Positions 16,790-36,516 of a DNA stretch of 64,000 bases are shown piece after piece (within the stretch, counting starts at the first letter, position 1; every line of letters starts with the position of its first letter). This stretch comes from Acidobacteriota bacterium (GTDB taxonomy: Bacteria; Acidobacteriota; Vicinamibacteria; Vicinamibacterales; UBA8438). Location of the stretch: assembly GCA_011523845.1 (NCBI GenBank), contig WTFV01000150.1, forward strand, positions 32,521 through 96,520. Reading direction: 5' to 3'. The position numbers and the translations under genes were made by a program. The notes under the pieces were generated by a model. The model was not told the origin of the DNA, made no database searches, and saw nothing but the letters and a program-made list of their open reading frames with translations.

Positions 16790-18562
16790 TCAGGCCGTGT
16801 ACTCGTAGTCGAACACGCACGACGCGCCAATCATCTCGCGAAACCACAACGTGGCGCGGGCGCCCTGCGAATCCGTCAGGTGAACTGGCTCGTTCAGAAC
16901 GAAACGCACCGGCTGGGTCTGGCCGTCGTTGATGGCCACGTTGTTCGCGTAGAGGTACGTGCGATCCAGCGCATCGAGCTTCGGATTGAGCCGCCCCTGA
17001 ATGCCCGGCAGATGCCGCGTTCGGTCGGCGATGACGAGCGATCCCCCGTTCGGGGCCGGCTGCAGGCGAACCTCCAGGGGCTCGCCGGGCTGATAGTCGC
17101 GCGCCACGTGCGCCATGAATCCCGTCGCGGCGCAGAACACGGTCATCGGCAGCTTGGCGTAGAGCACGAACTCGGCCCGCCCAAAGGCATCCGTCCGCGC
17201 CTCGCGATACGTCTTGTTGGGATAGAGCATCAGCACGTCGACACCCGGCAGCGGCTGGTCCGTGTCTCCGCGCCTGACCACGACGCGAACCGCGACGCCG
17301 TCGGACACCGGCAACCGCGCCGCCGGCAGGACGACCTTCAGTTCCCGCTCGCCGATCAACGTGAAGACCGGCCGTTCGCCGGCGAGGGCGAACGTCTCGT
17401 CCTGAATGACGCCGATGCCTTCGCCGCGCCGTTCGATGAAATACTGCCGCCCGCCCGCGCCCGGCACATCGCCCACCGGGCACTGGCCCAGCCGGGACGC
17501 CAGCAGCTCGTTGCGCGTGAACTGGCTGGTGCGCAGGTCGTCGGTCGTCATCGAATTGCAGAGCCCGCCCGGCGAATACAGCTCCAGCCGATCGTCGAAC
17601 ATGAACAGGCGTATCCGCGACCCCGACACCGCGTAGTCGCGATGCACCACCGCGTTGACAACCGCCTCGAAGACCGCGCGTTCGCTGAACTGCGGGACGT
17701 CGATACGCGCCGGGTCCTTGTACGCCGCCACACGCCGATTGCGGACCACGAAGCGCACCGCCTCGCGAATCTGCTCGTCGAGCGGACCGGTGACGTCCCG
17801 CGCGTCGAGTTGCCGGCCCGCGTCCATGCGGTCGCCGCTGTAACACACGGCCTGAATCCACGCGTTCGGCAACCATTCCCGCGCGTCGTCCACGGCCAGC
17901 AGCACCCCGCCGACCGTCGCCCGCAGCGCACCGTGCCGATCGTCCTTCAGGAACTTCAGCTTGGACAACGCGATCTCGGCCGGTTCGTCCATGCGCGAGC
18001 TGACATACTGGCGCCACAGCGCCGGGCGCAAGCTGCCGATCCCGGTGTTCCGCACGACCTGCGTGTCCGTCGCAGTCGCGTCGGACTGCCCCCGCGCCTG
18101 AGACAGCCGGCGGACCTCCGCGGAATCCATCTGCCGCTTCTTGTCACCCCGCCGGCGAAAGTATCCGCCGGGAGATCGGTGCACCGTTGCACTCTCCGGA
18201 ATCTCGACGACCAGCACACCACCCTTCCCGGACCCCGGCGCCTGCACCCGGAAGATGCTGAAGTCCAGCGGCGGCTTGATGCTGTCCGAACAGATCTCCG
18301 TCACCAGATTCGCCAGTGCGTCCAGTTGCGCCGGATCGAGCGACTGCGGTTGCCTGTCGTCCGATACGCCAAGGACGAGACGGCCGCCGCGGGCGTTGGC
18401 GAACGCCGCGAACTCGTCGGCAAGATCGTCGCGCCGGGGCCCTGACACACTGCTGCCGCGGAATCGAGCTTCCTTCAGCTCGAGATCCGTGTCTTCACCG
18501 AGGGCGATCTGTTTCCACAGGCGCTGTTCTTCGATTGGCATGGCCGCCGGACCACCCAGCAT
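16790..18562 (-). CDS. AlbA_2 (Schlafen-like) + HATPase_c_4 domain protein with extra C-terminal beta-rich domains
   Basis: DLELKEARF...EFAAFANARGGRLVLGV (AlbA_2), NAVVHRDYAVSGSRIRLFMFDDRLELYSPGGL (HATPase_c_4-type), then VRVVVRRGDTDQPLPGVDVLMLY...TDAFGRAEFVL (carboxypeptidase-regulatory-like). An alternative start lies at 18541 (MPIEEQ). Confidence 0.75.
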   Translation of the reverse strand: MLGGPAAMPIEEQRLWKQIALGEDTDLELKEARFRGSSVSGPRRDDLADEFAAFANARGGRLVLGVSDDRQPQSLDPAQLDALANLVTEICSDSIKPPLDFSIFRVQAPGSGKGGVLVVEIPESATVHRSPGGYFRRRGDKKRQMDSAEVRRLSQARGQSDATATDTQVVRNTGIGSLRPALWRQYVSSRMDEPAEIALSKLKFLKDDRHGALRATVGGVLLAVDDAREWLPNAWIQAVCYSGDRMDAGRQLDARDVTGPLDEQIREAVRFVVRNRRVAAYKDPARIDVPQFSERAVFEAVVNAVVHRDYAVSGSRIRLFMFDDRLELYSPGGLCNSMTTDDLRTSQFTRNELLASRLGQCPVGDVPGAGGRQYFIERRGEGIGVIQDETFALAGERPVFTLIGERELKVVLPAARLPVSDGVAVRVVVRRGDTDQPLPGVDVLMLYPNKTYREARTDAFGRAEFVLYAKLPMTVFCAATGFMAHVARDYQPGEPLEVRLQPAPNGGSLVIADRTRHLPGIQGRLNPKLDALDRTYLYANNVAINDGQTQPVRFVLNEPVHLTDSQGARATLWFREMIGASCVFDYEYTA

Positions 18563-18686
18563 TACCGCATCGCCTCACTGAGCCAGTCTCCGACGGCACG
18601 CTGCTCCCACTCCACGTACTCGCGGGGAGTTCGCCAGAATACCCTCCAAGCCTCATTGAGCAGCAGTCGACCAGATCCCTTCGTTT
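18562..18686 (-). pseudogene. Displaced 3' end (38 codons + stop) of the HExxH gene, cut off by the IS insertion
   Basis: GC-rich in-frame tail ..TKGSGRLLLNEAWRVFWRTPREYVEWEQRAVGDWLSEAMR* with no start codon. Its TAA overlaps the ATG of the AlbA_2 gene (TAATG). It joins in frame to 22092 when 18687-22091 (3405 nt) is removed. Confidence 0.8.
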
Positions 18687-18709
18687 GGGGATTATATACC
18701 GTCCTAGCC
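18679..18709. repeat. Left target-site duplication (cttcgttt, 18679-18686) + left terminal inverted repeat (18687-18709)
   Basis: IRL is ggggattatataccgtcctagcc. The reverse complement of IRR is ggggattatataccatcctagcc (22/23 match). Confidence 0.9.
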
Positions 18710-18819
18710 TAACGCTATCTCCCGAATATGCATTAGTTTATCCTGGCTGTCGTCGAGAACGGTCAACATCGGCACATGTTCGACGCAGCGCTGTCACCGG
18801 TTGTCGAGCCGTGCTCAAT

Positions 18820-19053
18820 TCAAGATAGAATGACAATTCCCCCCCCATGTATATTTCCAGTACGGTCACCGAGGCTGAATTGAACCTTAACACAGTGACC
18901 GTCCCAACCGTTACCTTCAACCTCAACATCATCAACGGCCAGCCCAATTGGTTTCTTAATGTGTTGCACACCTGCTTTCTCTCTTTTGGGTAGGTGGAAC
19001 CCTAGCACGAGCTTTGCCAGCATGTCAAGATTTCTAGCGTGCGCAGTCAGCAC
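18820..19053 (-). CDS. Hypothetical cargo ORF (77 aa), weak
   Basis: Track ORF in the AT-rich element, divergent from 19087..19668. No recognisable motif, and a competing ORF 18738..18971 overlaps it. Confidence 0.25.
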   Translation of the reverse strand: MLTAHARNLDMLAKLVLGFHLPKREKAGVQHIKKPIGLAVDDVEVEGNGWDGHCVKVQFSLGDRTGNIHGGGIVILS

Positions 19054-19086
19054 GCCGATTGAGAACCTGGACTCACGCTACTTGTA

Positions 19087-19668
19087 ATGGACAAATTCTC
19101 AAAACTAGAGTACACTCTTGAGATGAATTTCTCTGCTTTGCCAATTCGTTGGGGTGAACTTCTCTCGACTATCCTTCCTGGTGCTTGGGCATTGACGGCC
19201 ATTCTTCCGTATTTGCCGGAATTTACGGAGTGGCTATCTCAAGGCTCTCTAGCACAGGCGATGGTTATAATTGCAGCGGCAACACTCTTGGGCGGTTCTA
19301 TTAGTGGCTTCACTCGTTTTACTTGGGAATATGGTCTTTTTGCGTTTAGTGATTTCAAAGTGAAACCACTTTCTCTAGTGGTTACTGACTCAGAGAAGAT
19401 GAAATTGTATGAGTTTTTGTTGGACAATTCTTATAAATGGGTTGGGTGTCACGCCAATACTGGGTGGGCGACACTTTTGGTTTTGTTGAGTCGACTGCAA
19501 CGCTGCCCTTCCGAATTGGGAATCATAGAACTTGCATTATCTGTTGCGGTTGTGATATTATTTACAGCTTCGTATGTCCAATGGTGGATATACGTAGACC
19601 ATATGAATACTGCATTTGGCAGCAACGGAGGAGAGCATGTTCAGGAACGTACCACAGACGGGGTCTAG
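19087..19668 (+). CDS. Hypothetical integral membrane protein (about 4 TM), IS cargo
   Basis: 193-aa ORF with hydrophobic segments LLSTILPGAWALTAILPYL, AMVIIAAATLLGGSISGF, GWATLLVLLSRL and IIELALSVAVVILFTASYVQWWIY. Confidence 0.6.
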   Translation: MDKFSKLEYTLEMNFSALPIRWGELLSTILPGAWALTAILPYLPEFTEWLSQGSLAQAMVIIAAATLLGGSISGFTRFTWEYGLFAFSDFKVKPLSLVVTDSEKMKLYEFLLDNSYKWVGCHANTGWATLLVLLSRLQRCPSELGIIELALSVAVVILFTASYVQWWIYVDHMNTAFGSNGGEHVQERTTDGV

Positions 19669-19831
19669 GATTAAGGCCATCACATCTACGAGAGAATTCA
19701 AGCTAGGTGATGAGGGTACCTTGCGGGCACCGCTGGCAGACTACTACGTAGATCGCGCCGAGGATTTATTTGAGGCTGAATTCTTCGGTCGAATCATAGT
19801 AGTTCGTCGGGGTGACGTTGAGTTGACCTAA
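19637..19831 (+). CDS. Hypothetical small protein (64 aa), IS cargo
   Basis: ATG after GGAGGAG (aacggaggagagcATG): MFRNVPQTGSRIKAITSTREFKLGDEGTLRAPL... It overlaps the end of the membrane-protein gene. Confidence 0.5.
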   Translation: MFRNVPQTGSRIKAITSTREFKLGDEGTLRAPLADYYVDRAEDLFEAEFFGRIIVVRRGDVELT

Positions 19832-19877
19832 GATTCTGAACAGGGCTAGTGCGTGGCGATCCACTGGCTCTGTTGTC

Positions 19878-20813
19878 TTACTTCGCCGGTCGTGCCGTTG
19901 AAGAAAGGCCGTTCTCTCGAATAAGGTCCTTGTACCGCAATCTCTTGTCCTCAGCCAGAAACACCATCACCTGCATCTGCTCAATCGTATCCAGCGGCCG
20001 CTGGTTGTGCCGACCCTCGAATTCCTTGACATAGCGGTCCAAGTGCTTCGGGCTCATTTTGTGGTAGACCCCAATATAGCCACGCTTCATCATGCTCCAG
20101 AATGACTCCATGCCGTTCGTATGAGCTTGCTCCCTGACGTATTCTCCCGTCGAATGAGATACAGCCTCGCGATTCGGAACACCACTGTAAGTTGTCGCTG
20201 TATCTGTGTAGACCTTGGTCCCATCTTCCACATTCTCTTGAATGAAACCTTTGAGAGTCCGACCGTCGGTATTCTCAACTACCTTCGCTCTGACCCGACC
20301 CGTCCCTCGTTCCTTCATCCCAACGACAGCCGTCTTGTTGACTGGTCCTCGACCCTCCTCCTGTTTACGCTTCCACGCGTGCTTGTTCTTCGCCTTGCCA
20401 CCGAAATACCCTTCATCTACTTCAACAGCGTTCTCAAAATCACCTGCCTCTTCGTCCCGCCAGGTCTCCCGAATCCGATGCGCCAGATGCCACGCTGTCT
20501 TTTGGGTCACGCCCAGGTCCCGATGCAACTTCATCGAGGACGTCCCCTTGAGCCCAGTTGCCAGAAGGTAGAACGCCAGCGCCCAGGTCTGGAGACCCAG
20601 GTTGGAACCCTGCATGACCGTCCCAGTCTTGACGCTGAAGTGCTTCCGGCAATCTCGACACCGATAGGGCATCGGCTTTCGATTCTCGACCTTCCGAATA
20701 TTCAGCGAGCCGCACTGCGGGCACGCTATACCGTTAGGCCAGCGTGTTTCGATGAACCACTGCTCCGCGGCTTCCTCGGTGGCGAACATGCGCACGACTT
20801 CCATCAGGGTCAT
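19878..20813 (-). CDS. IS1595-family transposase (N-terminal Zn-ribbon + ISXO2-like DDE domain)
   Basis: MTLMEVVRMFATEEAAEQWFIETRWPNGIACPQCGS...YRCRDCRKHFSVKTGTVMQGSNLGLQTWALAFYL...VEVDEGYFGG...VYTDTATTYSG...HSTGEYV...HTNGMESFWSMMKRG. The longer track ORF (to 21074) runs through the tRNA and is rejected. Confidence 0.9.
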   Translation of the reverse strand: MTLMEVVRMFATEEAAEQWFIETRWPNGIACPQCGSLNIRKVENRKPMPYRCRDCRKHFSVKTGTVMQGSNLGLQTWALAFYLLATGLKGTSSMKLHRDLGVTQKTAWHLAHRIRETWRDEEAGDFENAVEVDEGYFGGKAKNKHAWKRKQEEGRGPVNKTAVVGMKERGTGRVRAKVVENTDGRTLKGFIQENVEDGTKVYTDTATTYSGVPNREAVSHSTGEYVREQAHTNGMESFWSMMKRGYIGVYHKMSPKHLDRYVKEFEGRHNQRPLDTIEQMQVMVFLAEDKRLRYKDLIRENGLSSTARPAK

Positions 20814-20977
20814 GCCCTTGCGCCAGTGCTTGCCGGGTGCGTTTCGTGCCACTGCGAGCCTCCTAGCCAGTCTAGGGGAAAGATATCGCAGTTGACAGTC
20901 CTCGACAAGCTGTTCTGGTACAGGTTTTGCTTGACTTGCAGCGGGCGGACCGGACAGACTTCGTGGCGGTGGAGGGG

Positions 20978-21061
20978 TGTGGGCGACGGGATTCGAACCC
21001 GCAAGACCTGCTGGCCAGCGGCTTTCTAGGCCGCCGCGTATTCCAGTTCCGCCACGCCCAC
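20978..21061 (-). tRNA. Class II (long variable arm) tRNA, anticodon loop CUAGAAA = apparent anticodon AGA; Leu/Ser-type body, A73, no encoded CCA
   Basis: Hand fold: GTGGGCG-TG-GCG-GAACTGGAATA-CGC-G-GCGGC-CTAGAAA-GCCGC-TGGCCAGCAGGTCTT-GCGGG-TTCGAAT-CCCGT-CGCCCAC-A. 7-bp acceptor stem, T8, A14, G18G19, canonical T-loop. Confidence 0.65.
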
Positions 21062-21460
21062 GCTGCTCCGCCATCTACTAGCTCTCATCCCTCTACCTCC
21101 TTGCCCAACATGGGCTTTGACCGTTCAATTCATTCTAGCAGAATCCTCGTGATGGTGATTGGTTTCAAGGCGAAGAAACGGCAAATGACAGGTTTCTGTC
21201 AGCGACGCCCTGTTAGCTTGACATTCATGCTTGATCTGTGGAACGCTACTCCTTGCCACGCGATTCGTGTACGACCCGACGCCGGGTCGCCCACCAAATA
21301 CAAGACTGCCCGTACGGGCAGGAATAGGTGGGGATCCCGCATGTACGTGCGCGAATCGTGTGGCAACTGGCCCGGTGACCAATTCCGGGCTGGCCCGTTG
21401 GCGTCCGTCGTCCAGGGTTTCGGTTGTCCGGAAACTCGGCGCTGGAAAGGACGTGCCACA

Positions 21461-21829
21461 ATGTTCCTTAACAGTCTACTTTATAGTGGGATTGCAGTTA
21501 TTATCGTGGTGGGTGCATATTTGTTACTTGATGGCAGAGACTTCTCTATGTCCAACTACTACTACCAAATGGGCAGAGACGATATATTGGCTGGACAGGA
21601 GTATCCTCCAGGTAGTATTTCGTGTGGAGAGTTGCCTGATGTTATTCAGCGCGTTGTAGATGAGCAGATGAGTAGTGGGGTCAATTTGGACCGTATTCGT
21701 GGCAGAATTGACGTTCAGTTTGATATGGTGAAGAATAGATGCGGAATGGGTCCAACTCGAATAGAGGGTAGTGGTTTGCCGCTAACACCCGAGGATAGAC
21801 GAAGGCGACTGCTGGAGGGTCTCCGTTAG
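21461..21829 (+). CDS. Hypothetical protein with N-terminal TM helix (122 aa), IS cargo
   Basis: MFLNSLLYSGIAVIIVVGAYLLLDGRDF...; the internal ATG of the 20927..21829 track ORF where AT-rich coding begins. Confidence 0.5.
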   Translation: MFLNSLLYSGIAVIIVVGAYLLLDGRDFSMSNYYYQMGRDDILAGQEYPPGSISCGELPDVIQRVVDEQMSSGVNLDRIRGRIDVQFDMVKNRCGMGPTRIEGSGLPLTPEDRRRRLLEGLR

Positions 21830-21880
21830 TGCTTGACTTGCGTGGTAGAATGTTGGCGGTCGAAATCAGGAGGTAGTGTG

Positions 21881-22054
21881 ATGCCGTCAAAGCTCAAGAT
21901 ACCACCCCGCATCCCGGACACTCCGGAGAACATCGCCCTAGCTTGTATGCAAGGTCCACCGAAAAAGAAATGGCGCCATCTGGAAGAGTCGGGGTTGGTG
22001 GCTGATGACCCTTCGCTCGAAGAGTACGAGGAGAAGGAGCCTTCTCGAGAGTAG
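21881..22054 (+). CDS. Hypothetical small protein (57 aa), IS cargo
   Basis: ATG after AGGAGG (aggaggtagtgtgATG): MPSKLKIPPRIPDTPENIALACMQGPPKKKWRHLEESG... Confidence 0.45.
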   Translation: MPSKLKIPPRIPDTPENIALACMQGPPKKKWRHLEESGLVADDPSLEEYEEKEPSRE

Positions 22055-22060
22055 TGGGTG

Positions 22061-22091
22061 GGCTAGGATGGTATATAATCCCCCTTCGTTT
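22061..22091. repeat. Right terminal inverted repeat (22061-22083) + right target-site duplication (cttcgttt, 22084-22091)
   Basis: ggctaggatggtatataatcccc followed by cttcgttt. The IRR supplies the last 6 codons and the TAG stop (GDYIPS*) of the truncated HExxH gene. Confidence 0.9.
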
Positions 22092-23100
22092 CCCGTCCGA
22101 CGATGTCGCAGTCCAGCGCGCGCGTACCCTCGAAAGCCAAGCCCTCAACTCGGCTGACGAGCTCTATTGGGAAGCAGCGTCGGTACTCTGGGGACGCCTC
22201 GCTGCCGCTCAACCCAAGGTACTCCTCCCACCGGCGCTCAATCGCGGCCCGCTCTTCATCAAAGCCGAGGCGTTCCAAGGCCAGAAGCATAGCCGTCATG
22301 CGCGCCGCGTCGGGTGGATGAACCGTGGGTGTCACGAGCGGAACCTCGAAGGGGTCTGCACCCACACTGGCCGCGAGGTGAAGGTGCGACCACGCAAACG
22401 CCGGACCGGCCATGTAGACGGCGTAGAGGTCACAGAAGAGTTCAATCGCCCACGAAAGCCAGCAGCCGATCCACGTCATCAAGTATTGTTTGAAGGTCTC
22501 CGGGCCTAGCCCAGCGTCCTCTTTGCGTAGCTCGCCCGCGAGGTACCCGTGGGCGTCGCTCACGGCTTCGACATGCCGCTTCTGAAAGCCCTCGAGACGC
22601 GCATCGTCTTCGAACTCCAGCAGTGAGTGCGCGAGCTCGTGGTAGAGATCCGGCAAGTGCAGCAGGAACCGCCCCTCTGCCAGCGGCACACAGACGAGCC
22701 GGAGGTCGGGGTACGTGTGGAAGTACCGCTGCGAGGCACAGGAGACCACAGGGGTTGGCAGTGGATAATGGATCTCTCCGGCCAGACGATCAGCGATCTG
22801 GTTCATCCAGCGATCTTCCGCGTTCCATCGGCACAGAGCGGTGACTGCAACCGACTCAAGGTGGTCTAGCTCACCCCGCACCCGACGAAAGAGGCGCAGG
22901 CGCTCCCGCTGATTGTCGGACTCCCTGAGTTCCGGACGATCGCGCAAGAGGCGAAGGCGCTTGCCGACTATCTTCAGGCGGTCGCGACATGCGACCTCGA
23001 GAGCAGCGACCTCCCGCCCGAGTCCGGCTGGAATCAAGTCGCACAACTGCCGGGTGCGCTCCAGCAACTGGGACACCGCCCCCTCGAAGTACTCGTTCAC
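22063..23100 (-). CDS. HExxH-motif protein (putative zincin-like), last gene of the Argonaute cassette; C-terminally truncated by the IS (345 aa now, 377 aa reconstructed)
   Basis: GTG start overlaps the upstream stop (GTGA 23097-23100). VNEYFEGAVSQLLERTRQL...; LHLPDLYHELAHSLL (H154-E-x-x-H158). Ends ..DIVGRETK + GDYIPS* encoded by the IS end. Confidence 0.75.
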   Translation of the reverse strand: MNEYFEGAVSQLLERTRQLCDLIPAGLGREVAALEVACRDRLKIVGKRLRLLRDRPELRESDNQRERLRLFRRVRGELDHLESVAVTALCRWNAEDRWMNQIADRLAGEIHYPLPTPVVSCASQRYFHTYPDLRLVCVPLAEGRFLLHLPDLYHELAHSLLEFEDDARLEGFQKRHVEAVSDAHGYLAGELRKEDAGLGPETFKQYLMTWIGCWLSWAIELFCDLYAVYMAGPAFAWSHLHLAASVGADPFEVPLVTPTVHPPDAARMTAMLLALERLGFDEERAAIERRWEEYLGLSGSEASPEYRRCFPIELVSRVEGLAFEGTRALDCDIVGRETKGDYIPS

Positions 23101-23462
23101 GTCCCAACGCCCCTCATCTTGGCGAGGGCTTCGGTTCGTCGCTCTTCCAGTCGTCGTGCGAGTTCTCGCAGCTTGTCCACGACTTCGGGGTCGACTGTGG
23201 TCGACAGCAGGGCGCGGCCTACGCATTCCCATTCCTTGCGGGCGCTCGGGTCCGCGCCACCGATGAGCATCCCCAGCCAAGCCGTGCGGAGGTCTGGTGG
23301 CGGAGCTACCGCAACACCGACCAGCAGTTCGCCGAGCTCCCGACGGGATGCATCTGTCCGTACGTCCGCCGTGGAACTCAGCCCGAGGATAACCTCGTCG
23401 ATGAGCTCGCCGTAGTCTCGCACTCGCTGGTACACGTTCGAGTGGACACCGATGTCGCTCAT
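23097..23462 (-). CDS. Hypothetical helical protein (121 aa) coupled to the Argonaute gene
   Basis: ATG overlaps the Argonaute stop (ATGA 23459-23462), preceded by GAGGAGGTGG. MSDIGVHSNVYQRVRDYGELIDEVILGL... Confidence 0.7.
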   Translation of the reverse strand: MSDIGVHSNVYQRVRDYGELIDEVILGLSSTADVRTDASRRELGELLVGVAVAPPPDLRTAWLGMLIGGADPSARKEWECVGRALLSTTVDPEVVDKLRELARRLEERRTEALAKMRGVGT

Positions 23463-25849
23463 GCCACCTCCTCGGCGGTCTCGCCGCCCACCACCGCCGC
23501 ATCTGCGAAATCGACCGCGTCTACGTCGTACTCTCCCGCCGCGGCCGCAAGGATGCGGTCGTTCAGCTTGATGGTGATCGGGTACCGGGTACAGCCCTCG
23601 GGCTGCGTCCAGGTCAGCGCAGTCAGGGAGTAGAGATCCTCCAGTGCCTCGGAAAAGGAAAGCGTGCCGTCGACCATGATGACGTGCAGCGGGTGGGCGG
23701 TGCCTTGACGGAGAAAAGGGTAGCCGGTCGAGCAGACGTACGCTTCCTGATCGCCGACGTAATATGTGGCGCCGACACTCGGGTTGTCCCCGAGCAACCC
23801 TCCACGGCCATTCGGCCGGACATCGTACAGGCGAAGCGGTACGGGTGACGACTTTGAAATTTCGATGACCGCGTAGCCGGTGTCGGGTGCGAGGCAGCCC
23901 TCTGAGCGAAGTTGGCGGATTGCACGACGGACACCGTCCAGCTCCGAGGGCCACGCCCGCCCGTCGCGGTGGACTACGACCTTGGAAAGCGGGGCGCCAC
24001 GAGCCCCCGCTTCCCTGCGCAATACCTCCACAAGATACGTCGACATCTGGGCCGCGAGCAGTCGCTCCTTCTGGCGAGACGTGTGGACGTCCGACCGGAT
24101 GTTGCTACCGTGCGCGCCGACGACCAGGAGACCGGCACTGTTGTTCTTTACGTCCACCCCGACCGTGACGTCCGCGTGAAGTGGAGTCGCAAGGACAAAC
24201 GGCCATCGCTGATTCGTCAGGAGCAGCTTCGCGATCACGACGTTACGCAAGTAGCCGGCCAGCTTTCTTCGAAGTGCCGGAACAGGCCCATAAACGACGT
24301 GACCGTCCTTGGCTCGCTCCTCGCGATAGGTGTGCCGTGGAACGTCGCTGTGGATGACGGTAGCTCGGACGTCGTGCTGTTGCCGAAGCTCCCGGACGAC
24401 CATCGCGGCAAGTTGGTCCTCGTCGCGGTTCTGTCGTCCGACGGTACGGTGCACCATGACTAGCGCATATCCGGGTCGTGAGCACTTGGCCGCCGTCGCA
24501 GCTCGCACTGCAAGAGCCTGGCGTACGAACGTCCGCTGGCCACGATCGGCATAGGGCACAATGATGGGCTTGTAGCCGCCGGGTTGAGGGAAGAACTCGT
24601 CGACAGCCTTGGAGAGATCCTCAATGAGCCGCGCGCCGATCGTATCGTAGATGCTCTCCGGAAGAATGAGATACTGCCGGTCGAGCGGCGCGGACTCATG
24701 AAAGCCCACTGTTTGGTCCCTGAGGAGCTCCAGCCTGCGGCTTCCGAAGTCGTTCGGCCTCGCTTGAACGGCTCCCCGCGTACCGCGAGCAGAAAGGACC
24801 GTATTCTTGCCGAATGCGAGATCGGGCAACTTGAAACCTTGGAGTGCGACCCGCAGTGGCTCGGTGGAGACGCGCACGCGTGCGTTTCCGAATTGAAGCG
24901 CGCGAAGGTACCGATCCACGAAGGCTCGGGTTTGGTTCCGGCGTTGATGGGGAGGCAGGATGGTTCTGCCGTGCTGGCCCGCAACCTCCTTGCTATTCGT
25001 GCGGAACACGGGATAGCACAGTGGCGCGGGCGCCGCAAGCTCAGCGCCCCGATTGTTCAGATAGAGAACGGCCGCAGAATCGGCAGGTAGGTTACCCAGA
25101 TCCGACGGAAACGGTCGGCGCGCCTGATCGAGAATGTACTCGAGCAACGACCAAGTTCTCCCCTTCGTGACGAAGCGGTATTCCTGTACGTTCCTGTCGG
25201 CCAGGGCGTGAAGATGAACCTCGTACCAGTCTTGGCCGAAGCGGTACACGCAGTTGCGACCCTTCCAGCGGGCGGCGAATTCGTTGCGTGCCAGCCGCGC
25301 CGGGAGCGGACGGGCGCTGACGTAGCAGTGGTGCACGTCGACACAGAGACCAATGCCCGCCTCGGGAGTTAAGACAGGCCGCACGCTGAAGCCCACGTAA
25401 CGATGGATGCCGCGGTCGTTCTGCGCCGGATTGCGCTCGAAGAACGGGCGTCCAGATTGCAGTTGCCAAAGCCGTGCATCGCGTCCGAGCGGGGCCTGGA
25501 CCAGGAAGCGAAGAAACCGCAGGGAGATCGCGTCATCCGGCCCTCGCTTCGAGTAGTCAAGGTCGACTCCTTCGTCACGAGGCCGAAGCTGAACGACGAC
25601 GCGCACAAGCTCGACTTCCGAGGGAAGCGTGGCGACATCTTCGGAAACGACGACGAAAGGGATATCGCCGCGTTCGATTACAAGTACAGCCTTCCTGAGC
25701 GAATAGCTGAGCCGCCGTTCGAGCGCTTGGCGATTTTGGAAGTACTCGGCTTGGTCTCGGCGCAGGCCGGCGACCTCGACGAGCCTGTACCGCGTCGACA
25801 ACTCGCCCAGGTTCGTGATGGAATAGATGTTCGTTTCAAGCTGCCTCAT
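23459..25849 (-). CDS. Long prokaryotic Argonaute (pAgo, 796 aa) with PAZ-like, MID and PIWI regions and an apparent DEDD catalytic tetrad
   Basis: From MRQLETNIYSITNLG. PIWI signatures: TVGVD566V, QKE595RLL, VVVHRD629GR, LTWTQPEG..YPITIKLND764RILA. MID/PIWI linker YLRNVVIAKLLLTNQRWPF. PAZ-like NCVYRFGQDWYEVHL...WSLLEYIL...CYPVF. Confidence 0.85.
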   Translation of the reverse strand: MRQLETNIYSITNLGELSTRYRLVEVAGLRRDQAEYFQNRQALERRLSYSLRKAVLVIERGDIPFVVVSEDVATLPSEVELVRVVVQLRPRDEGVDLDYSKRGPDDAISLRFLRFLVQAPLGRDARLWQLQSGRPFFERNPAQNDRGIHRYVGFSVRPVLTPEAGIGLCVDVHHCYVSARPLPARLARNEFAARWKGRNCVYRFGQDWYEVHLHALADRNVQEYRFVTKGRTWSLLEYILDQARRPFPSDLGNLPADSAAVLYLNNRGAELAAPAPLCYPVFRTNSKEVAGQHGRTILPPHQRRNQTRAFVDRYLRALQFGNARVRVSTEPLRVALQGFKLPDLAFGKNTVLSARGTRGAVQARPNDFGSRRLELLRDQTVGFHESAPLDRQYLILPESIYDTIGARLIEDLSKAVDEFFPQPGGYKPIIVPYADRGQRTFVRQALAVRAATAAKCSRPGYALVMVHRTVGRQNRDEDQLAAMVVRELRQQHDVRATVIHSDVPRHTYREERAKDGHVVYGPVPALRRKLAGYLRNVVIAKLLLTNQRWPFVLATPLHADVTVGVDVKNNSAGLLVVGAHGSNIRSDVHTSRQKERLLAAQMSTYLVEVLRREAGARGAPLSKVVVHRDGRAWPSELDGVRRAIRQLRSEGCLAPDTGYAVIEISKSSPVPLRLYDVRPNGRGGLLGDNPSVGATYYVGDQEAYVCSTGYPFLRQGTAHPLHVIMVDGTLSFSEALEDLYSLTALTWTQPEGCTRYPITIKLNDRILAAAAGEYDVDAVDFADAAVVGGETAEEVA

Positions 25850-26777
25850 CGGCCTTCTCCCAGCAGATCTTCTGGTACGCGCAACGCTGACAGACGTTGG
25901 GCCATGCCGTGACCGCGAAGTCTTCGGCGCGGAGGTCGCCGTTCTTGAGACCGTCCGTCGCAGCGAGCATCTCTGTCGCGCTCGCCGCCACGTAGTCCTC
26001 AAGCTCGTCGAAGTCCGCTGAATCCAAGGCATACTCGTGCTCGATTCCTGAAAGCAGTTGCGCCTCGACGAGCCGGTAGTCTGTCGGCGTAAACTCCGTC
26101 AGGACCGGCGGAAAGTCGCGGTGTGGGGTGCAGCGCGACAGCGACAGCGCGTACAGGGCCAATTGGAGCCGGTAGTCGCGAGTACCGAACGAATGGACTT
26201 TCCAGTCTACGATGAGCGGGGGCGCTTTCTCGTTGAATGCAATCACGTCGGGGACCGCGACAACCGACACGCCGGCGAATTTGAACTGCAGAGAACGCTG
26301 GGCGACCACGTACGAAGCGCGCTTCAGGGCGGCTCGCAGCCCGTCCATCTTGAACACGTTGTCAATCGCCGTTTGGATGTCCTGCCACGCCTGCGCAATC
26401 TCCTCCTGTCGTATGCCGTGGCCGTACTCGATCGCGCGGAAGGCTGCAACTGCGTCGTTCTTGGAAAGCTCCAGCGCAGGCTCGTGGATGCGATTGTTGA
26501 TCGCGAAGTCCAGCTCCCGCTCGAAGCAGACTTTGGCGGCAGTGCGGAGGTCCGCCTTCGTGATTCGCTGGCCCCGCCTCAAAGCCAGCACGAGTCTCTC
26601 GCTGAGGATTCTGTCGACGAGCCTGCCGCGCCACCCGCTCACGCTCTGGAGCTTCGAAAGGAGGTAGGCCGTCCGACGCTGCCGATCCTTGGCCACGGCG
26701 CTTGCAAGGCAATTCTTGAAGAACCAGCTCCGCTGGCACTGCCGAAAAGCACGCGCCGCCGAGAAGGACCACCTCAT
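25836..26777 (-). CDS. Cas4-like PD-(D/E)XK nuclease with four-Cys (Fe-S) signature
   Basis: 313 aa. C14 ... D177 (AVPDVIAF), D191-W-K193 (LIVDWKV), Q205xxxY209 (QLALYAL), C296-x2-C299-x5-C305. Its 3' end overlaps the pAgo start by 14 nt, and its ATG overlaps the XRE stop (ATGA). Confidence 0.8.
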   Translation of the reverse strand: MRWSFSAARAFRQCQRSWFFKNCLASAVAKDRQRRTAYLLSKLQSVSGWRGRLVDRILSERLVLALRRGQRITKADLRTAAKVCFERELDFAINNRIHEPALELSKNDAVAAFRAIEYGHGIRQEEIAQAWQDIQTAIDNVFKMDGLRAALKRASYVVAQRSLQFKFAGVSVVAVPDVIAFNEKAPPLIVDWKVHSFGTRDYRLQLALYALSLSRCTPHRDFPPVLTEFTPTDYRLVEAQLLSGIEHEYALDSADFDELEDYVAASATEMLAATDGLKNGDLRAEDFAVTAWPNVCQRCAYQKICWEKADEAA

Positions 26778-27127
26778 CTCCCCGACCTCCGCCCTTGGCG
26801 CGCGCGCAAGAACTCAAGGTACTCCGCAAGGGCCTCCTCCTCGTCAGGGGTCACGTCGCCGAAACGCGCTAGCCCCGTTGGAGCTAGCTCCCGTTCGGGA
26901 AAGCCCGGAACGGGGTAACCAGCGAGACGCATCGCCTTGGCGTACGAGACACGGTACAGCTCGCTAAGCTTGTGCAGGATGACAGGCGAAGGCTGACGGA
27001 TCCGACCGTGTTCGAGCTGGCTCAGGTAGGCGTTGGAGACATCCGTCTGTTCCTCCACCGCGCGTAGCGACATGGAGCGCCGCTCTCGTGCGTTTCTCAG
27101 GAAACCTGCCAAGGCTCCGTGACTCAT
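26774..27127 (-). CDS. XRE-family helix-turn-helix regulator, first gene of the Argonaute cassette
   Basis: LRNARERRSMSLRAVEEQTDVSNAYLSQLEHGRIRQPSPVILHKLSELY is a canonical HTH_3 pattern. 117 aa. Confidence 0.85.
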   Translation of the reverse strand: MSHGALAGFLRNARERRSMSLRAVEEQTDVSNAYLSQLEHGRIRQPSPVILHKLSELYRVSYAKAMRLAGYPVPGFPERELAPTGLARFGDVTPDEEEALAEYLEFLRARQGRRSGR

Positions 27128-27133
27128 GCGCTA

Positions 27134-27167
27134 ATCATGTCAAGCGCCGCAAAATATGTCAAGCGCC
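27134..27167 (-). promoter_or_regulatory. Putative promoter/operator of the Argonaute cassette: two 12-bp direct repeats GGCGCTTGACAT, 19 bp apart
   Basis: The minus strand reads GGCGCTTGACATattttgcGGCGCTTGACATGATtagcgcATG. The distal TTGACA lies 17 nt before CATGAT, which ends 6 nt before the ATG (possible leaderless transcript). The repeats could be XRE operators. Confidence 0.4.
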
Positions 27168-27446: not shown

Positions 27447-30227
27447 CTACGCACGCTGCACGGCTGCGCGCGTCATGGCCTGGTCGTACCACATCAGCAG
27501 CTTCGGATCCTCCTGGAGCACGTCCTCCGGGATCTTGCGAGCGACCTCGACGATCGTGGCGTAGTCCCGAGCCTGCCATGCCTTGCGGAAACCGGCGCGG
27601 ATCGCTTCCAGGCGGAACAGCTTCAGGCGTCGCTCCGTGGAATGCCGGTACTCGTCGAACTCCCGGAGCAGGCCGCGGGTTCGCCACTCGTCGAGGTCGC
27701 TCGCCTTGCGGGGATCCGGGACGTACCAGCGGTCCTTCGCCTTGGCGCGAAGGGCGAACGCGTCCTTCGGCAGGTTGCGGAGCTCCTTGAAGTTGCCGGA
27801 CAGGTAGGCGTGAATCTGGCTCGGCACCTCGCCTCGGCCATCGTACCGCAGGAAGTTCTGCTCCAGGAACGCCGACAGCTCGATCATCCGCTCGTGCTTC
27901 TGCCAGCCGCCGAGCTCGCGGATGAACTGCGGATGGATCTCCTGGAAGGTCTGCGGCTTCCTCCCAAGTTGTTGGCGCAACCACTGGATGGCGGTCTCCT
28001 CGTCCCTGACGAAGAGCTCGAGCTGCACCAGTTCGCGAGCCGCCAGCCGTCTGGAATCGTACTCCACGACCTGCTCGGGCAGGAAGAACATGCCGTCCCG
28101 CTCCGGAAAGCGTTGCGTGAGCCCTTCGTGGAATTCAGTGGCAGAGAGCGGAACGGTGACACCGCGTTGCACGTGGAAGGCGACCATGCGGTCGAACAGC
28201 AGGTAGCTCTGGCGCTCGGCGATGACCTCGGCCCGCCCTTCCCTGGCCACGAATACCGGAAGCTGGCGCATGTGGGTGCTGACGAAGTCCCAGGCGCCGT
28301 CCGCGGTCCCGGCCTGCGGTCGGAAACGGTCTTCCAGCCCGCCGTTCGGCTTGTAGGCGGAGATCACCAGATCCTGCTTGACCGCGGTGCTCGTGACCTG
28401 CCGGTAGGAACCCTGCTGCTTGTCGAGCGTGCGGACGTCGGCGACCACGAAGCCGGCCGCCAGCATGGCTTCCTGGATGGCGTTCCAGATCGCATTCCTA
28501 GAGTTGTGGAAGACGACGGTGATCCACCGGCCGGGTTTTAGGACGCGACGGTACGCTTCGAAGCAGTGCTGCATCAGGCGCTGGTAATCGACGACGTCCT
28601 TACCCTTCGGCCGGTCGACGATGGCCTCGGTCTCGCTACGCGTGCGGGTGCGGTGCCAGGATTCGACGAGGTGGTTGAGGTCGGCGTAGAAGATGTTCTC
28701 TCCGAAGGGCGGATCCGTGAACACGTAGTCGACGGAGTCGTCGGGCAGGGCGTTGGCGCCGCAATCGCTGGTCGAGATCATCGCGAGATCCGGGCGCGAA
28801 ACTGTCGGCTTGAAGGCCCTTGCGAGACGCTGCAACTTGCCATCGAGAATATACCATGGACACACTTCTGCAATTTGCGAGGCCACATAGTAGACTCCCG
28901 ACAGTTGACGATTCACCTGAGAAAAGTGGGAAGGGCCGTAGCGATTCAGTACCGACATACCCCAAATTGCCTGCTCCACGAAGAACAAGAGCATGCTTCT
29001 CAATCGGTTGTCTTCGCATTCATCTACACGCCGCCACATCGCCGCCAGCACATGCGCCGCCCGCGGCAGGAACAGGTGGTGCACATGCGTGAAGCCCTTC
29101 GGCGCCAGACGCGAGCCGTGGTACATCTCGTCGATGGGAAACGCGTCGGTTGGGACCTCGGACGGCAGCGGGAGACCGGCGATGCGGTCGAGAACGCCCA
29201 GATCGGCAGAGTCCGGTTCCTTCTCGTAGCGCGCATCGCCCACGCTGTAGTTGATCAGCACGGGCCGGAGACGAATACGTTTCCACGGCCGGCCCGACGC
29301 GGGATCGGCGAGCGTTTCGAACGACCGCACGAAGTTGTTCTTGGTCAGCTTCACGGCGCAGTGCGGACAGGGAAACGTGGATCTCGTGCGCCGGGTGGCC
29401 TTGTCGAGCGCCTCGTCGAAGAACACGACTTCGCCCGCGCAGTCCGGGCAGGAGAAGACCTCGCTCCACACCGTGTAGTTGATTCGCCCCGTGGTCCGCC
29501 CGTCGGCGTGGAGCGTGTCGTACATCCAGCCGATCTCCTCTTCGACCTCCGTCAGGAGTTCGGAGGCCGCCTCGCGGAACGCGGTGACGTCGAACGGCAG
29601 GTTGTAGTTGGCGGCGATGAAGGTGGCGGCCGGCGACAGATCGCCGAGAATCACGCGGCGGGCGCCCCATGCCGGCGGGTTCCGCTCTTCCCCCTTCCAG
29701 CGTTGTTCGAGGTCCTTCCGATAGGCGGGCGGCGCCGTGCCGCACCATTGCGCGGCGACGCCGGTCATGCCGGAGCCGCAGAATCCGTCCAGAACGATGT
29801 CACCCGGTCGCGTGTAGTGGAGGATGGACGGGACGATCGCCAGGTGCGGCACCTTGGTGTGGTACCCGTGCGCCCGATAGAGAGGGTCGGTCTTGCCGGC
29901 GCTGACGTCGACGGCGAACGGCTCGCGGTGATACGGCTCGTCGGGATCGTAGTGACGGCCGTGGCGCTCGACGAACTGCGCCAGGAACGGATTCGGACAA
30001 GCCGTGTAGTACGGCGGATCGGACAGCCGCAGGATGGCATCATCATCTGCCATCGGAAAATCGGGTCGTTGCCGCAACTCGGGTAGCTTCTCCTTCAGTC
30101 GCGCCAGGAAATACTGCCGGCGCGCCTCCTCCGACTCGAAGGTCAACCCGAGGCACTCCACGCGTGCCGATTCGCCCGTCGCGGCGGACTCCGACAGGAG
30201 ATCGGGCGTCGGATTACGGCTGGCCAC
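27447..30227 (-). CDS. pglXI: BREX type 3 DNA methyltransferase PglXI-like (N6/N4 methylase family)
   Basis: 926 aa. SD70PPYY, LDGFCGSGMTG (AdoMet motif I-like), Cys4 ribbon CPDC...CPHC, and a second catalytic-type tetrapeptide FTD505PPFG. Confidence 0.75.
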   Translation of the reverse strand: MASRNPTPDLLSESAATGESARVECLGLTFESEEARRQYFLARLKEKLPELRQRPDFPMADDDAILRLSDPPYYTACPNPFLAQFVERHGRHYDPDEPYHREPFAVDVSAGKTDPLYRAHGYHTKVPHLAIVPSILHYTRPGDIVLDGFCGSGMTGVAAQWCGTAPPAYRKDLEQRWKGEERNPPAWGARRVILGDLSPAATFIAANYNLPFDVTAFREAASELLTEVEEEIGWMYDTLHADGRTTGRINYTVWSEVFSCPDCAGEVVFFDEALDKATRRTRSTFPCPHCAVKLTKNNFVRSFETLADPASGRPWKRIRLRPVLINYSVGDARYEKEPDSADLGVLDRIAGLPLPSEVPTDAFPIDEMYHGSRLAPKGFTHVHHLFLPRAAHVLAAMWRRVDECEDNRLRSMLLFFVEQAIWGMSVLNRYGPSHFSQVNRQLSGVYYVASQIAEVCPWYILDGKLQRLARAFKPTVSRPDLAMISTSDCGANALPDDSVDYVFTDPPFGENIFYADLNHLVESWHRTRTRSETEAIVDRPKGKDVVDYQRLMQHCFEAYRRVLKPGRWITVVFHNSRNAIWNAIQEAMLAAGFVVADVRTLDKQQGSYRQVTSTAVKQDLVISAYKPNGGLEDRFRPQAGTADGAWDFVSTHMRQLPVFVAREGRAEVIAERQSYLLFDRMVAFHVQRGVTVPLSATEFHEGLTQRFPERDGMFFLPEQVVEYDSRRLAARELVQLELFVRDEETAIQWLRQQLGRKPQTFQEIHPQFIRELGGWQKHERMIELSAFLEQNFLRYDGRGEVPSQIHAYLSGNFKELRNLPKDAFALRAKAKDRWYVPDPRKASDLDEWRTRGLLREFDEYRHSTERRLKLFRLEAIRAGFRKAWQARDYATIVEVARKIPEDVLQEDPKLLMWYDQAMTRAAVQRA

Positions 30228-32091: not shown

Positions 32092-32125
32092 GCCGTCGTT
32101 CCGAGACGATTCGCATCCTGCCGGA

Positions 32126-32512
32126 TCACGCCGCCTCGACGTCGGTGCGAGCGAAGTCGTCGCCCTTGAACAGCAGCGGTTCGCCGGTGGCCTTCGCCAA
32201 CGCATAGGCGAGACAGTCGCCGAAGTTCAACGCCGCCCGATGATTGCCCTTGCCGAATCGCCGCCAGGCGCGGCGGGCGACCTCGACGTGTTCCGGCGTG
32301 ACCGGCGCCAACTCGATCTCCGCCTTGTCCAGAAACATGTCGAGTTGACGTCCCGCCGCGGCTCCCGCCCTGCCCTCGACAACCATGGTTGCTTCGAGCA
32401 GGGCGACCGCCGACATGCGCCTGGGCCACGCCGCCGAGATTGCCTGTTCGTAGTGCGTCGCGTCCGATTCGCCGAACAGGATGGCCATGATCGCCGACGT
32501 GTCGATGATCAC
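32126..32512 (-). CDS. vapC: VapC PIN-domain toxin
   Basis: MIIDTSAIMAILFGE... (PIN Asp4) ...FGDCLAYALA. GTG start overlaps the vapB stop (GTGA). Confidence 0.9.
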   Translation of the reverse strand: MIIDTSAIMAILFGESDATHYEQAISAAWPRRMSAVALLEATMVVEGRAGAAAGRQLDMFLDKAEIELAPVTPEHVEVARRAWRRFGKGNHRAALNFGDCLAYALAKATGEPLLFKGDDFARTDVEAA

Positions 32513-32769
32513 TTCGGCAGTCCCCGTTCGTCATAGAGGAGGTCTCCGTGGTCGACGGCCGAAGGTCCGGGTCCCATCAGCTTGGCGCAGCGTTGTCCGA
32601 TGGCGTGGAGCTTCTCGGCCAGCTCGTCCGCGTTGCGCAGGCGCTTCTCCCGCTCCAGACGCTCGCGCAGCGCGACGGTGACTGCACCGGTCATCGTTTC
32701 GCCGGTCAGCCGAGCGAGCTCGCGGGCCAGCCGACAGGTCTCCTCGTTCTTGATGTTGAGGCTCATCAC
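32509..32769 (-). CDS. vapB: VapB antitoxin (PSK/Rv0623-like family)
   Basis: MMSLNIKNEETCRLARELARLTGETMTGAVTVALRERLERE... It sits immediately upstream of the PIN toxin, between brxC and the AlbA_2 gene. Confidence 0.9.
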   Translation of the reverse strand: MMSLNIKNEETCRLARELARLTGETMTGAVTVALRERLEREKRLRNADELAEKLHAIGQRCAKLMGPGPSAVDHGDLLYDERGLPK

Positions 32770-32808
32770 AAGGTCCTTTGGTGGAAGATCGTAGACTCGA
32801 CGCTCCGG

Positions 32809-35800: not shown

Positions 35801-36516
35801 CGGTCCTTCACCCGCCGCAGGCTGTCGGCCACGTGGTGGAACCGCGGACTGTCGAAGATCGCCTCCTGCACGCCGGCGACGAAACGGAAGCGCAGATCCT
35901 TCGATACCTCGCCGACCTCGCGCAGGAAGTTCAGGTCGAGAACCAGTTCCTGGTCCCTGCGGCTCTTCAGGTAATCGAGCAGCTCGTCCACCACCAGCAG
36001 CAGCCCCTGGTCGGGGTGCCGCGCGTGGAACGCCGCCATCATGTCCTCGAAGGCGCGCTTGTGGTTCGGGATCGTGTGCCGGGGCGGGAACCGGTAGTCG
36101 ATGCCCCAGCCCGCCAGTGCCTCTTCGAGCTGCGAGCAGACGAACTCGCGGAAGTCCATCGTCGTCGCGCCGAGCTCGGTGCGGGCAACCCGGAACCGGC
36201 CGGCGATGCGCCGGGCGGCGCCGGCGACCCGCTGGTCGATCTCGGTGAGGAGATCCGCGCGCTCGGCCAGTGCGGAGATGACCGACATCAGGTGGGACTT
36301 GCCCGTCCCGTAGTTCCCGACGACCAGGAAGCCCTTGTTGTCGGCGGGCTCGTCGATCTGGATCTGCGGGATGACGACCTCTGCCAGCCGCTCCGCCATG
36401 TCCGCGCTCACGACGTAGGTGGACACGAGCTGCCGGGCCTCCGCCTCGCGATCGGCGTCCCGGAGCTGCACCACCGTTTCGATCGGCTCGAACCGGATCA
36501 GATCCCCGTATTTCAT
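32809..36516 (-). CDS. brxC: BREX P-loop ATPase BrxC/PglY-like (about 1235 aa)
   Basis: [22 protein letters not shown]... and Walker [15 protein letters not shown] near the N-terminus. Very large alpha-helical remainder. An alternative upstream ATG at 36564 would overlap brxF by 17 nt. Confidence 0.8.

Follow-up and report, generated by a model that had tools for sequence, protein, structure and literature searches.

An IS1595-family insertion in the last gene of a PliAgo/RslAgo-type Argonaute operon within an acidobacterial BREX-3 locus

Prokaryotic Argonautes (pAgos) of the PliAgo/RslAgo group are preceded by a Cas4-like PD-(D/E)XK nuclease and a helix-turn-helix (HTH) regulator (PMC9360449). 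APACE systems combine a long-A pAgo with an Argonaute-associated Cas4 family enzyme, either ACE1 or ACE2, and APACE2 is described as uncharacterised (Bobadilla Ugarte et al., 2025; PMC12094033). A further partnership is known from CapH/CapP, where an HTH repressor is cleaved by a metallopeptidase (bioRxiv 10.1101/2022.04.27.489752; PMC13228613). Here we describe a pAgo operon of the PliAgo/RslAgo type in 64,000 nucleotides of contig WTFV01000150.1 from an Acidobacteriota bacterium (the window; all coordinates refer to it, and features lie on the minus strand unless stated otherwise). The operon is situated inside a type 3 bacteriophage exclusion (BREX-3) locus, and its last gene, which encodes a protein with an HExxH motif, is split by an insertion sequence (IS). 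Precise excision of this element regenerates the ancestral HExxH gene. Taking all data together, we consider it very probable that an IS1595-family element sits in the last gene of a self-contained operon within the variable interval of the BREX-3 locus, and that the junction between operon and BREX genes stems from one joining and does not reflect a general coupling of Argonaute and BREX.

The interrupted open reading frame (ORF) reads ...GTC GGA CGG GAA ACG AAG and then continues into foreign GGG GAT TAT ATA CCA TCC TAG; beyond the insert, the host sequence resumes as ...AAACGAAGG GATCTGGTCGACTG... A preceding sequence-only reading of the window had proposed that deletion of positions 18687-22091 (3,405 nt) fuses ...GTC GGA CGG GAA ACG AAG in frame to GGA TCT GGT CGA CTG... 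and that the IS-encoded tail GDYIPS* thereby gives way to GSGRLLLNEAWRVFWRTPREYVEWEQRAVGDWLSEAMR*. Both statements were reproduced when we re-derived them from the sequence, and the empty-site junction of the restored sequence reads GGACGGGAAACGAAG/GGATCTGG. The rebuilt ORF comprises 377 codons from GTG 23100 to TAA 18562-18564 and contains the motif LYHELAHSLL (HELAH). This deletion is the right one because inverted repeats bound the insert and an 8-bp direct repeat flanks it: the octamer CTTCGTTT (plus strand) is present in perfect copies at 18679-18686 and 22084-22091, and the 3,405 nt are made up of the 3,397-bp element and one copy of the duplicate. Continuity of the ORF by itself is weak evidence at ~68% G+C. 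The length of 3 x 1135 nt was dropped as a meaningful property, since precise excision restores the frame at any length.

The insertion falls at codon 339/340 of the 377-codon gene. Its 5' part (22084..23100; 339 codons from GTG 23100, with the HELAH motif) runs six codons plus a stop into the IS, to 22063, and the orphaned 3' end (18562..18686), identified by alignment to the C-termini of orthologues, keeps 38 codons and the TAA. One copy of the target duplication (18679-18686) lies inside this 3' end, and the second (22084..22091) was located as its direct-repeat match. The truncated product consists of 339 native residues plus GDYIPS and is devoid of two helices and three invariant residues. 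The longest ORF across the interrupted gene (479 aa, 22063-23502) has an Arg-rich false N-terminus that runs over the pAgo and 121-aa genes described below; the real start is GTG 23100.

The rebuilt tail of 38 residues agrees with the C-termini of intact orthologues. P0001, the best match to the restored protein (377 aa, 91% identity, 100% coverage), is identical at 35 of the 38 positions, and orthologues do not end differently: the tail aligns without gaps in alignments of 24 and of 111 sequences. The restored protein has 444 homologues at E <= 0.001; of the 120 listed, those that are not fragments measure ~372-398 aa, with a coverage of 97-100%. An exhaustive profile search matched 1,472 cluster representatives, 326 of them at E <= 1e-30, with full-length representatives matching out to profile positions ~365-376 of 378. 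The tail carries the conserved block LLNEAWxxFWxxPxxYVxWE, in which W350, W354 and E364 account for three of the 29 columns without variation among 111 family members; P357 and W363 reach at least 90% conservation in these members and do not vary in the 24-sequence alignment. On the DNA level, the orthologous locus L002 is colinear across the insertion point and contains the target octamer as a single copy. Besides, the tail is undecayed, as its three differences from P0001 correspond to the rate in the rest of the protein. In the AlphaFold2 (AF2) model of the restored protein (predicted local distance difference test, pLDDT, 95; predicted template modelling score, pTM, 0.92), the lost segment forms the last two helices (residues 341-355 and 357-376). 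Since these helices and their three invariant residues are removed, the truncation most likely inactivates the HExxH protein. The restored gene sets the true length and the conserved C-terminus of a large unnamed family with at least 1,472 clusters at 50% identity.

The insert (18687..22083) was identified as an IS1595-family insertion sequence with passenger DNA from its inverted repeats, the direct repeat, the G+C profile and identical copies elsewhere. The inverted repeats (18687-18709 and 22061-22083) are 23 nt long and match at 22 of the 23 positions; the window contains no further copy, nor would one be expected by chance. The G+C content of the element is ~54% as compared with ~70% in the flanks. 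Its ends, GGGGATTAT, fit ggnnatTAT, the ISNwi1-subgroup consensus of ISfinder, which makes the element a candidate member of this subgroup. The transposase is a protein of 324 aa starting at GTG 20852 (19878..20852; 975 bp). It matches Pfam DDE_Tnp_IS1595 (3.6e-38), with an N-terminal Zn_ribbon_IS1595 (3.1e-9), and NCBIfam transpos_IS1595 (181.6 bits, cutoff 75); tblastn finds annotated IS1595 transposases, and a gene call in the contig L087 supports the 324-aa product. The longest ORF at this position (398 aa, 19878-21074) is an over-extension across a tRNA gene. A DDE transposase with zinc ribbon, terminal inverted repeats and an 8-bp duplication are all in line with the IS1595 family, for one member of which 8-bp direct repeats have been reported (PMC12561309). 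In contrast to this family likeness, the element is 3.4 kb long with only 975 bp devoted to the transposase, and its passenger DNA includes a tRNA-Ser(AGA) gene; long IS1595 members with passenger genes are known from Siguier et al. (2009), as cited in PMC12561309.

The same insertion is found in other assemblies. All six listed contigs that encode an identical copy of the AlbA_2 protein downstream of the HExxH gene have the IS end at this very position (samples ERZ27234776, SRR10694908, ERZ23488010, 3300033057, 3300033111 and ERZ23488088). Two of these, the long contigs L087 and L088 with different sample accessions, contain the identical 3,397-bp element at the same site, and the short contigs L089-L092 break inside the IS and hold its AlbA_2-proximal end. 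Positions 8790-26562 of the window are identical over 17.8 kb to L087 (ENA ERZ27234776, contig k141_1646056, 99 kb). Since L087 may be the window's own source contig, the independence of this finding rests on L088 and the IS-end contigs L089-L092. The insertion is real and fixed among the listed contigs with this AlbA_2 allele, and the undecayed 38-codon tail and neighbouring genes fit a recent event.

The disrupted gene is the last of five, in the order XRE-type HTH, Cas4-like nuclease, PliAgo/RslAgo-type pAgo, 121-aa protein and HExxH protein. The cassette opens with the HTH regulator (26774..27127; 117 aa; Pfam HTH_31 and HTH_3, PADLOC capH 3.9e-7), followed by the Argonaute-associated Cas4-like PD-(D/E)XK nuclease (25836..26777; 313 aa; Pfam PDDEXK_1, PADLOC Aga_Cas4-like_Nuc 1.6e-112) and the long Argonaute of the PliAgo/RslAgo group (23459..25849; PADLOC pAgo_II 5e-271). 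The gene for the 121-aa helical protein (23097..23462) overlaps the pAgo stop in an ATGA and the HExxH start in a GTGA. In a phmmer search the pAgo matches the PDB entries 7R8F-7R8K with E ~4e-143 over residues 3-785, and its motifs GvDvK, rqkE, hrDgraw and klnD align with D563, E592, D626 and D762 of the DEDD tetrad (positions taken from PMC9360449). Because of the match to the PliAgo crystal structures and the retained DEDD residues, we place the protein in group 1 as defined by Lisitskaya et al. (2022; PMC9360449) for pAgos that use DNA guides and cleave RNA, cleavage itself being predicted.

Like the described PliAgo/RslAgo operon, the window has the Cas4-like nuclease and the HTH regulator in front of the pAgo. 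The text of the original paper (PMC9360449) names only these two partners and not the 121-aa or HExxH genes. All five genes are also found at the locus of the biochemically characterised RslAgo (WP_013921749) on the conjugative plasmid pRUNSL03, where RefSeq labels both the 121-aa and the HExxH gene 'hypothetical protein'. What sets the operon of the window apart is the IS in its last gene and its location inside BREX-3. It also resembles the APACE systems in combining a catalytically competent long pAgo with a Cas4-family nuclease, and the 313 aa of the nuclease equal the average ACE2 length (PMC12094033); the likeness to APACE2 is one of length and PADLOC match. The HTH, 121-aa and HExxH partners are, in contrast, unmentioned in PMC12094033. 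The operon is horizontally mobile.

In a survey of 80 species-level loci from many phyla that carry the HExxH gene, neighbours were scored within 10 kb. A pAgo is encoded upstream in 71 of the 80 loci, the complete set of HTH, nuclease and pAgo in 61, and an ORF of 90-200 aa (mostly 118-127 aa) directly precedes the HExxH gene in 76. The 121-aa protein itself has 31 homologues, nearly all of 120-122 aa, and belongs to no Pfam, NCBIfam or PADLOC family; its AF2 model (pLDDT 84) is a helical bundle, for which Foldseek returned generic helical bundles only and no fold match. The HExxH gene emerges as the constant fifth gene of the operon for the RNA-targeting PliAgo/RslAgo Argonautes, which already serve as tools.

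Variants with fewer genes also exist. In six loci (L008, L044, L046, L068, L080 and L083) the HTH, 121-aa and HExxH genes stand in a row without nuclease and pAgo, as intact ORFs behind the same operator (coordinates ~9000-11200 in the loci; 2546-4512 in L068), and L083 keeps an apparent short N-terminal nuclease fragment. The neighbours of these trios are heterogeneous and include DEAD/MZB helicases, an Eco57I-type methylase and ilvD; the idea that minimal trios regulate a common neighbouring effector was dropped for this reason. A Dehalococcoidia subgroup (L049, L056, L057, L058 and L063) has HTH and pAgo with no Cas4-like nuclease detected between them by tblastn.

The operon has a conserved control region of its own. 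Two tandem 19-bp boxes with the consensus GCGCTTGACATnnTTnGCG (27129..27166), which read GCGCTTGACATATTTTGCG and GCGCTTGACATGATTAGCG in the window, end 1 nt before the ATG of the HTH gene. The double-box layout recurs in ~70 loci from many phyla (L007-L086), ~60 nt upstream of the HTH start. The first box is partly palindromic and carries a -35-like TTGACA; the second follows ~19 nt later, contains a -10-like TATAnT element and, in most loci, is separated from the ATG by 0-3 nt, a minority having a longer leader. We read this arrangement as a putative promoter embedded in operator sequences, from which the HTH gene would be transcribed without a leader. Such a promoter would entail autoregulation.

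In type 3 BREX the gene order is reported by Goldfarb et al. (2015) to be brxF-brxC-pglXI-brxHII-pglZ-brxA. The window follows this scheme in that BrxF, BrxC, PglXI, PglZ and BrxA are all encoded in order on one strand. The upstream half (27447..37033) contains BrxF (36548-37033; PADLOC 8.5e-61, Pfam), BrxC (32809-36564; PADLOC E = 0, Pfam), a first AlbA_2/Fic_C protein (AlbA_2/HATPase_c_4; 30214-32205; Pfam) and PglXI (27447-30227; PADLOC E = 0, Pfam). Downstream of the cassette are the AlbA_2/HATPase_c_4 protein next to the HExxH gene (16790..18562 as the longest ORF of 590 aa, or 583 aa from a conserved start at ATG 18541; Pfam, N-terminal comparison), PglZ of the BREX-3 type (14747-16759; NCBIfam BREX_PglZ_3 760.9 bits, PADLOC PglZ 5e-266) and BrxA (14007-14747; PADLOC 1.8e-59), the last with a 1-nt stop/start overlap with PglZ. 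The locus departs from type 3 BREX by its interior, which holds two AlbA_2/HATPase_c_4 genes and the pAgo cassette and is without BrxHII: no helicase was found among the large ORFs of 14,007-37,033, every one of which was assigned with Pfam and PADLOC. A canonical BREX-3 is present in the relative L093, where an SNF2 helicase stands upstream of PglZ and BrxA.

The AlbA_2 gene next to the HExxH gene has more than 120 homologues at 71-92% identity, and orthologues without a pAgo (81-92% identity) occur in three different settings. In L093 (92%) the gene occupies the same chromosomal site, with an RtcB-porin-DHOR flank, after SNF2 helicase-PglZ-BrxA; in L094 it stands alone; and in L095 it lies between PglXI and PglZ among DUF3644, DUF4325, AAA_21 and TIR genes. 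Hence AlbA_2 resides in the island whether or not a pAgo is present, and acidobacterial BREX-3 loci use the space between PglXI and PglZ as a slot for variable and interchangeable defence cargo. The candidate role of AlbA_2 as a dedicated pAgo partner was dropped, as its orthologues occur without pAgo. The interval of L095 (4844-13685) encodes DUF3644, DUF4325, an AAA_21 ATPase, two ThsB-like TIR proteins and an 8xMP protein. Independent defence modules nested in BREX, such as the type IV restriction enzyme BrxU or PARIS, are known, and the window likewise has an independent defence module between core BREX genes. A literature search returned no report of an Argonaute cassette as a nested BREX module, which is a weak negative. 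Both the disruption of a defence gene by an IS and the nesting of defence cargo in BREX are known kinds of event.

Where the cassette meets AlbA_2, the sequence-only reading had described an overlap of the restored stop (TAA, 18562-18564) with the ATG of the 590-aa gene. One base is indeed shared with this ATG, but the seven-codon extension that it starts is absent from the 39 AlbA_2 orthologues inspected: the start of 35 corresponds to codon 8 of the window (ATG 18541), and that of the other four lies 1-2 residues further upstream. The N-terminus of the orthologues typically reads MPIDxxRLW, that of the window MPIEEQRLW, and only weak Shine-Dalgarno-like sequences precede both candidate starts. 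An open seven-codon extension is found only in the window, with TAATG, and in L002-L004, with TAGTG. ATG 18541 is thus likely to be the real start, giving a 583-aa protein behind a 20-nt gap, and the TAATG overlap is probably a longest-ORF artefact, because the orthologues start at codon 8 of the window or 1-2 codons upstream. For annotators this means that the 345-aa HExxH product is an insertion artefact and the 590-aa AlbA_2 call probably one of the longest-ORF rule.

The same reading had inferred one uninterrupted, translationally coupled string before the insertion. In the restored sequence, HTH, nuclease, pAgo, 121-aa protein, HExxH protein, AlbA_2, PglZ and BrxA do form a string of eight co-directional genes with overlaps or gaps of at most 30 nt, PglZ and BrxA following AlbA_2 at +30 nt and -1 nt; translational coupling is no more than possible. 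As neither a 20-nt gap nor an overlap has room for an intergenic promoter, AlbA_2 would have depended, prior to the insertion, on a transcription start inside the HExxH gene or further upstream, and the same may hold for PglZ-BrxA, which makes co-transcription of the string plausible. Today the IS probably interrupts read-through transcription into AlbA_2-pglZ-brxA, because read-through must cross 3.4 kb with a tRNA gene and an opposite-strand ORF. A scan for sigma-70 promoters and terminators over the IS and both junctions gave nothing above shuffle expectation and leaves polarity and an outward promoter undecided.

The cassette adjoins AlbA_2 and PglZ only in the window, in L001, in L002-L004 and in L097. 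The junction reads GGTGGTCCGGCGGCC-ATGCCAATCGA in the window as well as in L002-L004. In L001 the junction is decayed, with the ATG mutated to ACG and a decayed AlbA_2. In L097 (5367-5751) a short remnant of the AlbA_2 5' end (ATGCCAATCGAAG...) follows the HExxH stop; ~385 nt downstream of the HExxH gene comes a full AlbA_2 gene preceded by a GAGGTGA ribosome-binding site of its own, with opposite-strand genes before PglZ. The remnant hints that recombination of the cassette has its boundary at the AlbA_2 5' end. The junction would be best explained by a single ancestral joining that was passed on and later eroded, and among the loci examined the cassette is found in BREX-3 only in a narrow acidobacterial lineage. 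As side observations, BREX-3 of the syntenic relative L001 looks decayed in other places as well, with PglXI split into 439 and 481 aa, an AlbA_2 of 270 aa and a PemK toxin gene before PglZ (2757-5534, 11251-12373), and in L002 (17-4535) a complete PglZ-BrxA pair precedes the cassette, while AlbA_2 and another PglZ come after it. Among named organisms, the nearest relatives of the locus genes are found in Acidobacteria/Bryobacteraceae metagenome-assembled genomes.

The sequence-only reading had taken the restored string as an argument that the pAgo cassette is functionally integrated with BREX, which our data do not support. Integration would mean that both were one translationally coupled operon with cooperating products, pAgo/AlbA_2 for example replacing the missing BrxHII, at whose place L093 has its SNF2 helicase. 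Such an arrangement would fit the short gaps of at most 30 nt from HTH to BrxA, the junction common to the window and L002-L004 and traceable in decayed L001 and in the L097 remnant, the stop and start that are both kept in TAATG (window) and TAGTG (L002), and the weak match of the AlbA_2 proteins to the Schlafen part of the PADLOC pAgo model PDLC02394. However, PglZ, AlbA_2, BrxC, BrxF and BrxA are encoded within 10 kb of the HExxH gene in none of the 80 species-level loci, a single locus having a 31%-identical PglXI-like match on the opposite strand, and close relatives of the cassette live outside BREX, namely L005 (70% identity) and L096 (121-aa protein 86% identical, beside an AlpA-like gene and transposases). 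Moreover, the cassette brings its own conserved promoter/operator, AlbA_2 orthologues do without pAgo, the L095 interval is filled with TIR, AAA_21 and DUF4325 cargo, L097 shows the 385-nt gap and opposite-strand genes, and the conserved AlbA_2 start lies seven codons past the overlap. Downstream coupling is also missing at other loci, as outside the window's lineage only L044 has a long ORF over the HExxH stop, and this encodes a housekeeping dihydroxy-acid dehydratase (ilvD). We therefore regard functional integration as unlikely. Equally doubtful is a selected loss, in which the IS is kept as a crude defence switch that silences a costly or autoimmune pAgo regulator or pglZ-brxA. The insertion is present in every contig found with this AlbA_2 allele, from several samples, and pAgo, nuclease, AlbA_2, PglZ and BrxA are still full-length as judged by their profiles, both of which selection would explain; yet only the IS-bearing allele was found, and intact flanks and an undecayed tail fit a recent neutral or mildly deleterious hitch-hiking insertion equally well. 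As for a mis-assembly or chimera, the sharp drop in G+C inside the 3.4-kb block and the several short contigs that break in it could be seen as warning signs, but contig breaks are expected from a repeated element, the 8-bp duplication is perfect, the inverted repeats lie exactly at the borders and the identical element occupies the same site in L087 and L088, with independence carried by L088 and L089-L092, so that an artefact is extremely improbable.

The account that we favour is as follows: the 3,397-bp IS1595-family element transposed into codon 339/340 under duplication of 8 bp and hit the terminal gene of a self-contained and presumably self-regulated five-gene operon; this operon occupies the variable pglXI-pglZ interval of a type-3 BREX, its 3' end abutting the start of the resident AlbA_2; and the close spacing at the HExxH/AlbA_2 junction, which amounts to a 20-nt gap or, with the upstream ATG, to a 1-nt overlap, would have been inherited by a few related genomes from one joining. 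Several points weigh against this account. An empty-site allele was not recovered by an exact 42-mer junction search of genome contigs, and an empty-site 23-mer gave no match in metagenome contigs, a result that is uninformative, as the control IS end, which is present in the JGI-derived L090 and L091, also gave none. The polarity of the insertion and the loss of HExxH function are deduced from sequence. The HExxH protein is probably a zinc-dependent hydrolase, with the motif, the invariant E220 and the predicted layout as the whole basis of this assignment, and it has no Pfam, NCBIfam or PADLOC match in single-sequence and per-member searches at E up to 10. Finally, there is some room for a lineage-specific co-regulation, as the adjacency of cassette, AlbA_2 and PglZ recurs in related loci.

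With regard to the HExxH protein itself, H154, E155, H158 and E220 are invariant in 111 sequences, and the AF2 model places three short strands before the HExxH helix, a zincin-like strand-strand-strand-helix layout. Searches for a known relative remained negative: a PDB profile search with the family returned coiled-coil noise only, the best Foldseek hits of the AF2 model were not significant (E 0.5 in the PDB, 0.045 in BFVD), the 150 listed matches of the exhaustive profile search were all family members with no bridge to a known family, and Peptidase_M78 matched one of 24 members at a non-significant E of 0.13. The HTH protein, in turn, matches PADLOC capH with residues 10-109 on profile positions 11-100 of 103 (E 3.9e-7), generic XRE-type models scoring similarly.

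This combination recalls CapH/CapP, since the operon opens with a capH-matching XRE-type HTH and closes with an HExxH protein, and since HTH, 121-aa and HExxH genes stay together even without pAgo and nuclease. Unlike CapP, the HExxH protein has no significant M78/CapP sequence similarity and no fold match, the HTH and HExxH genes are not adjacent, and a third protein of 121 aa is always present. By analogy with CapH/CapP, we tentatively suggest that the three proteins could form a regulatory or sensor part of the operon. Going one speculative step further, they might be an undescribed three-protein module, a non-M78 analogue of CapH/CapP, in which the HExxH protein and its helical partner relieve repression by the HTH protein at the double operator and so switch on pAgo and nuclease; in the acidobacterial lineage of the window the same promoter might then have driven AlbA_2-pglZ-brxA and co-induced BREX-3 and Argonaute until the IS cut the link. 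The HTH/121-aa/HExxH trio, the double operator with its leaderless start and the natural variants without Argonaute are testable leads on PliAgo/RslAgo operons. In our opinion, the unnamed fourth and fifth genes of these operons, the double operator and the tRNA-bearing IS are by-products that deserve more attention than the coupling to BREX.

Both AlbA_2/HATPase_c_4 proteins (30214-32205 and 16790-18562) weakly match the 1,121-aa PADLOC pAgo model PDLC02394 (E 1.9e-14 and 6e-11), and a further match of both is to the 'PNTD' parts found in SIR2-type partners of Argonautes. We take PDLC02394 to represent a Schlafen-fused pAgo and attribute the matches to shared Schlafen/ATPase-like domains; bioRxiv 10.64898/2026.05.29.728809 describes Schlafen-pAgo fusions.

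About 2.2 kb of the IS (18710-19877 and 21062-22060) is neither transposase nor tRNA. An ORF of 193 aa on the opposite strand (19087-19668) has no Pfam or PADLOC match, and its translation looks hydrophobic; the ORFs of the IS region at 20927-21829, 21231-21659 and 21894-22148 are without a Pfam match. The tRNA-Ser(AGA) gene (20976..21061) was detected with ARAGORN and Rfam RF00005 (52.6 bits, E 1.9e-8). It lies ~125 nt upstream of the transposase start and is the only tRNA gene in the window; a search for it in viral contigs found none. Serine tRNAs with A34 are unusual in bacteria. The discriminator base looks like A, and G is the typical discriminator of bacterial tRNA-Ser. The share of UCU among Ser codons is 0-10% in the sampled genes of host and island, as against 15% and 44% in two IS-borne ORFs, all of these being small counts.

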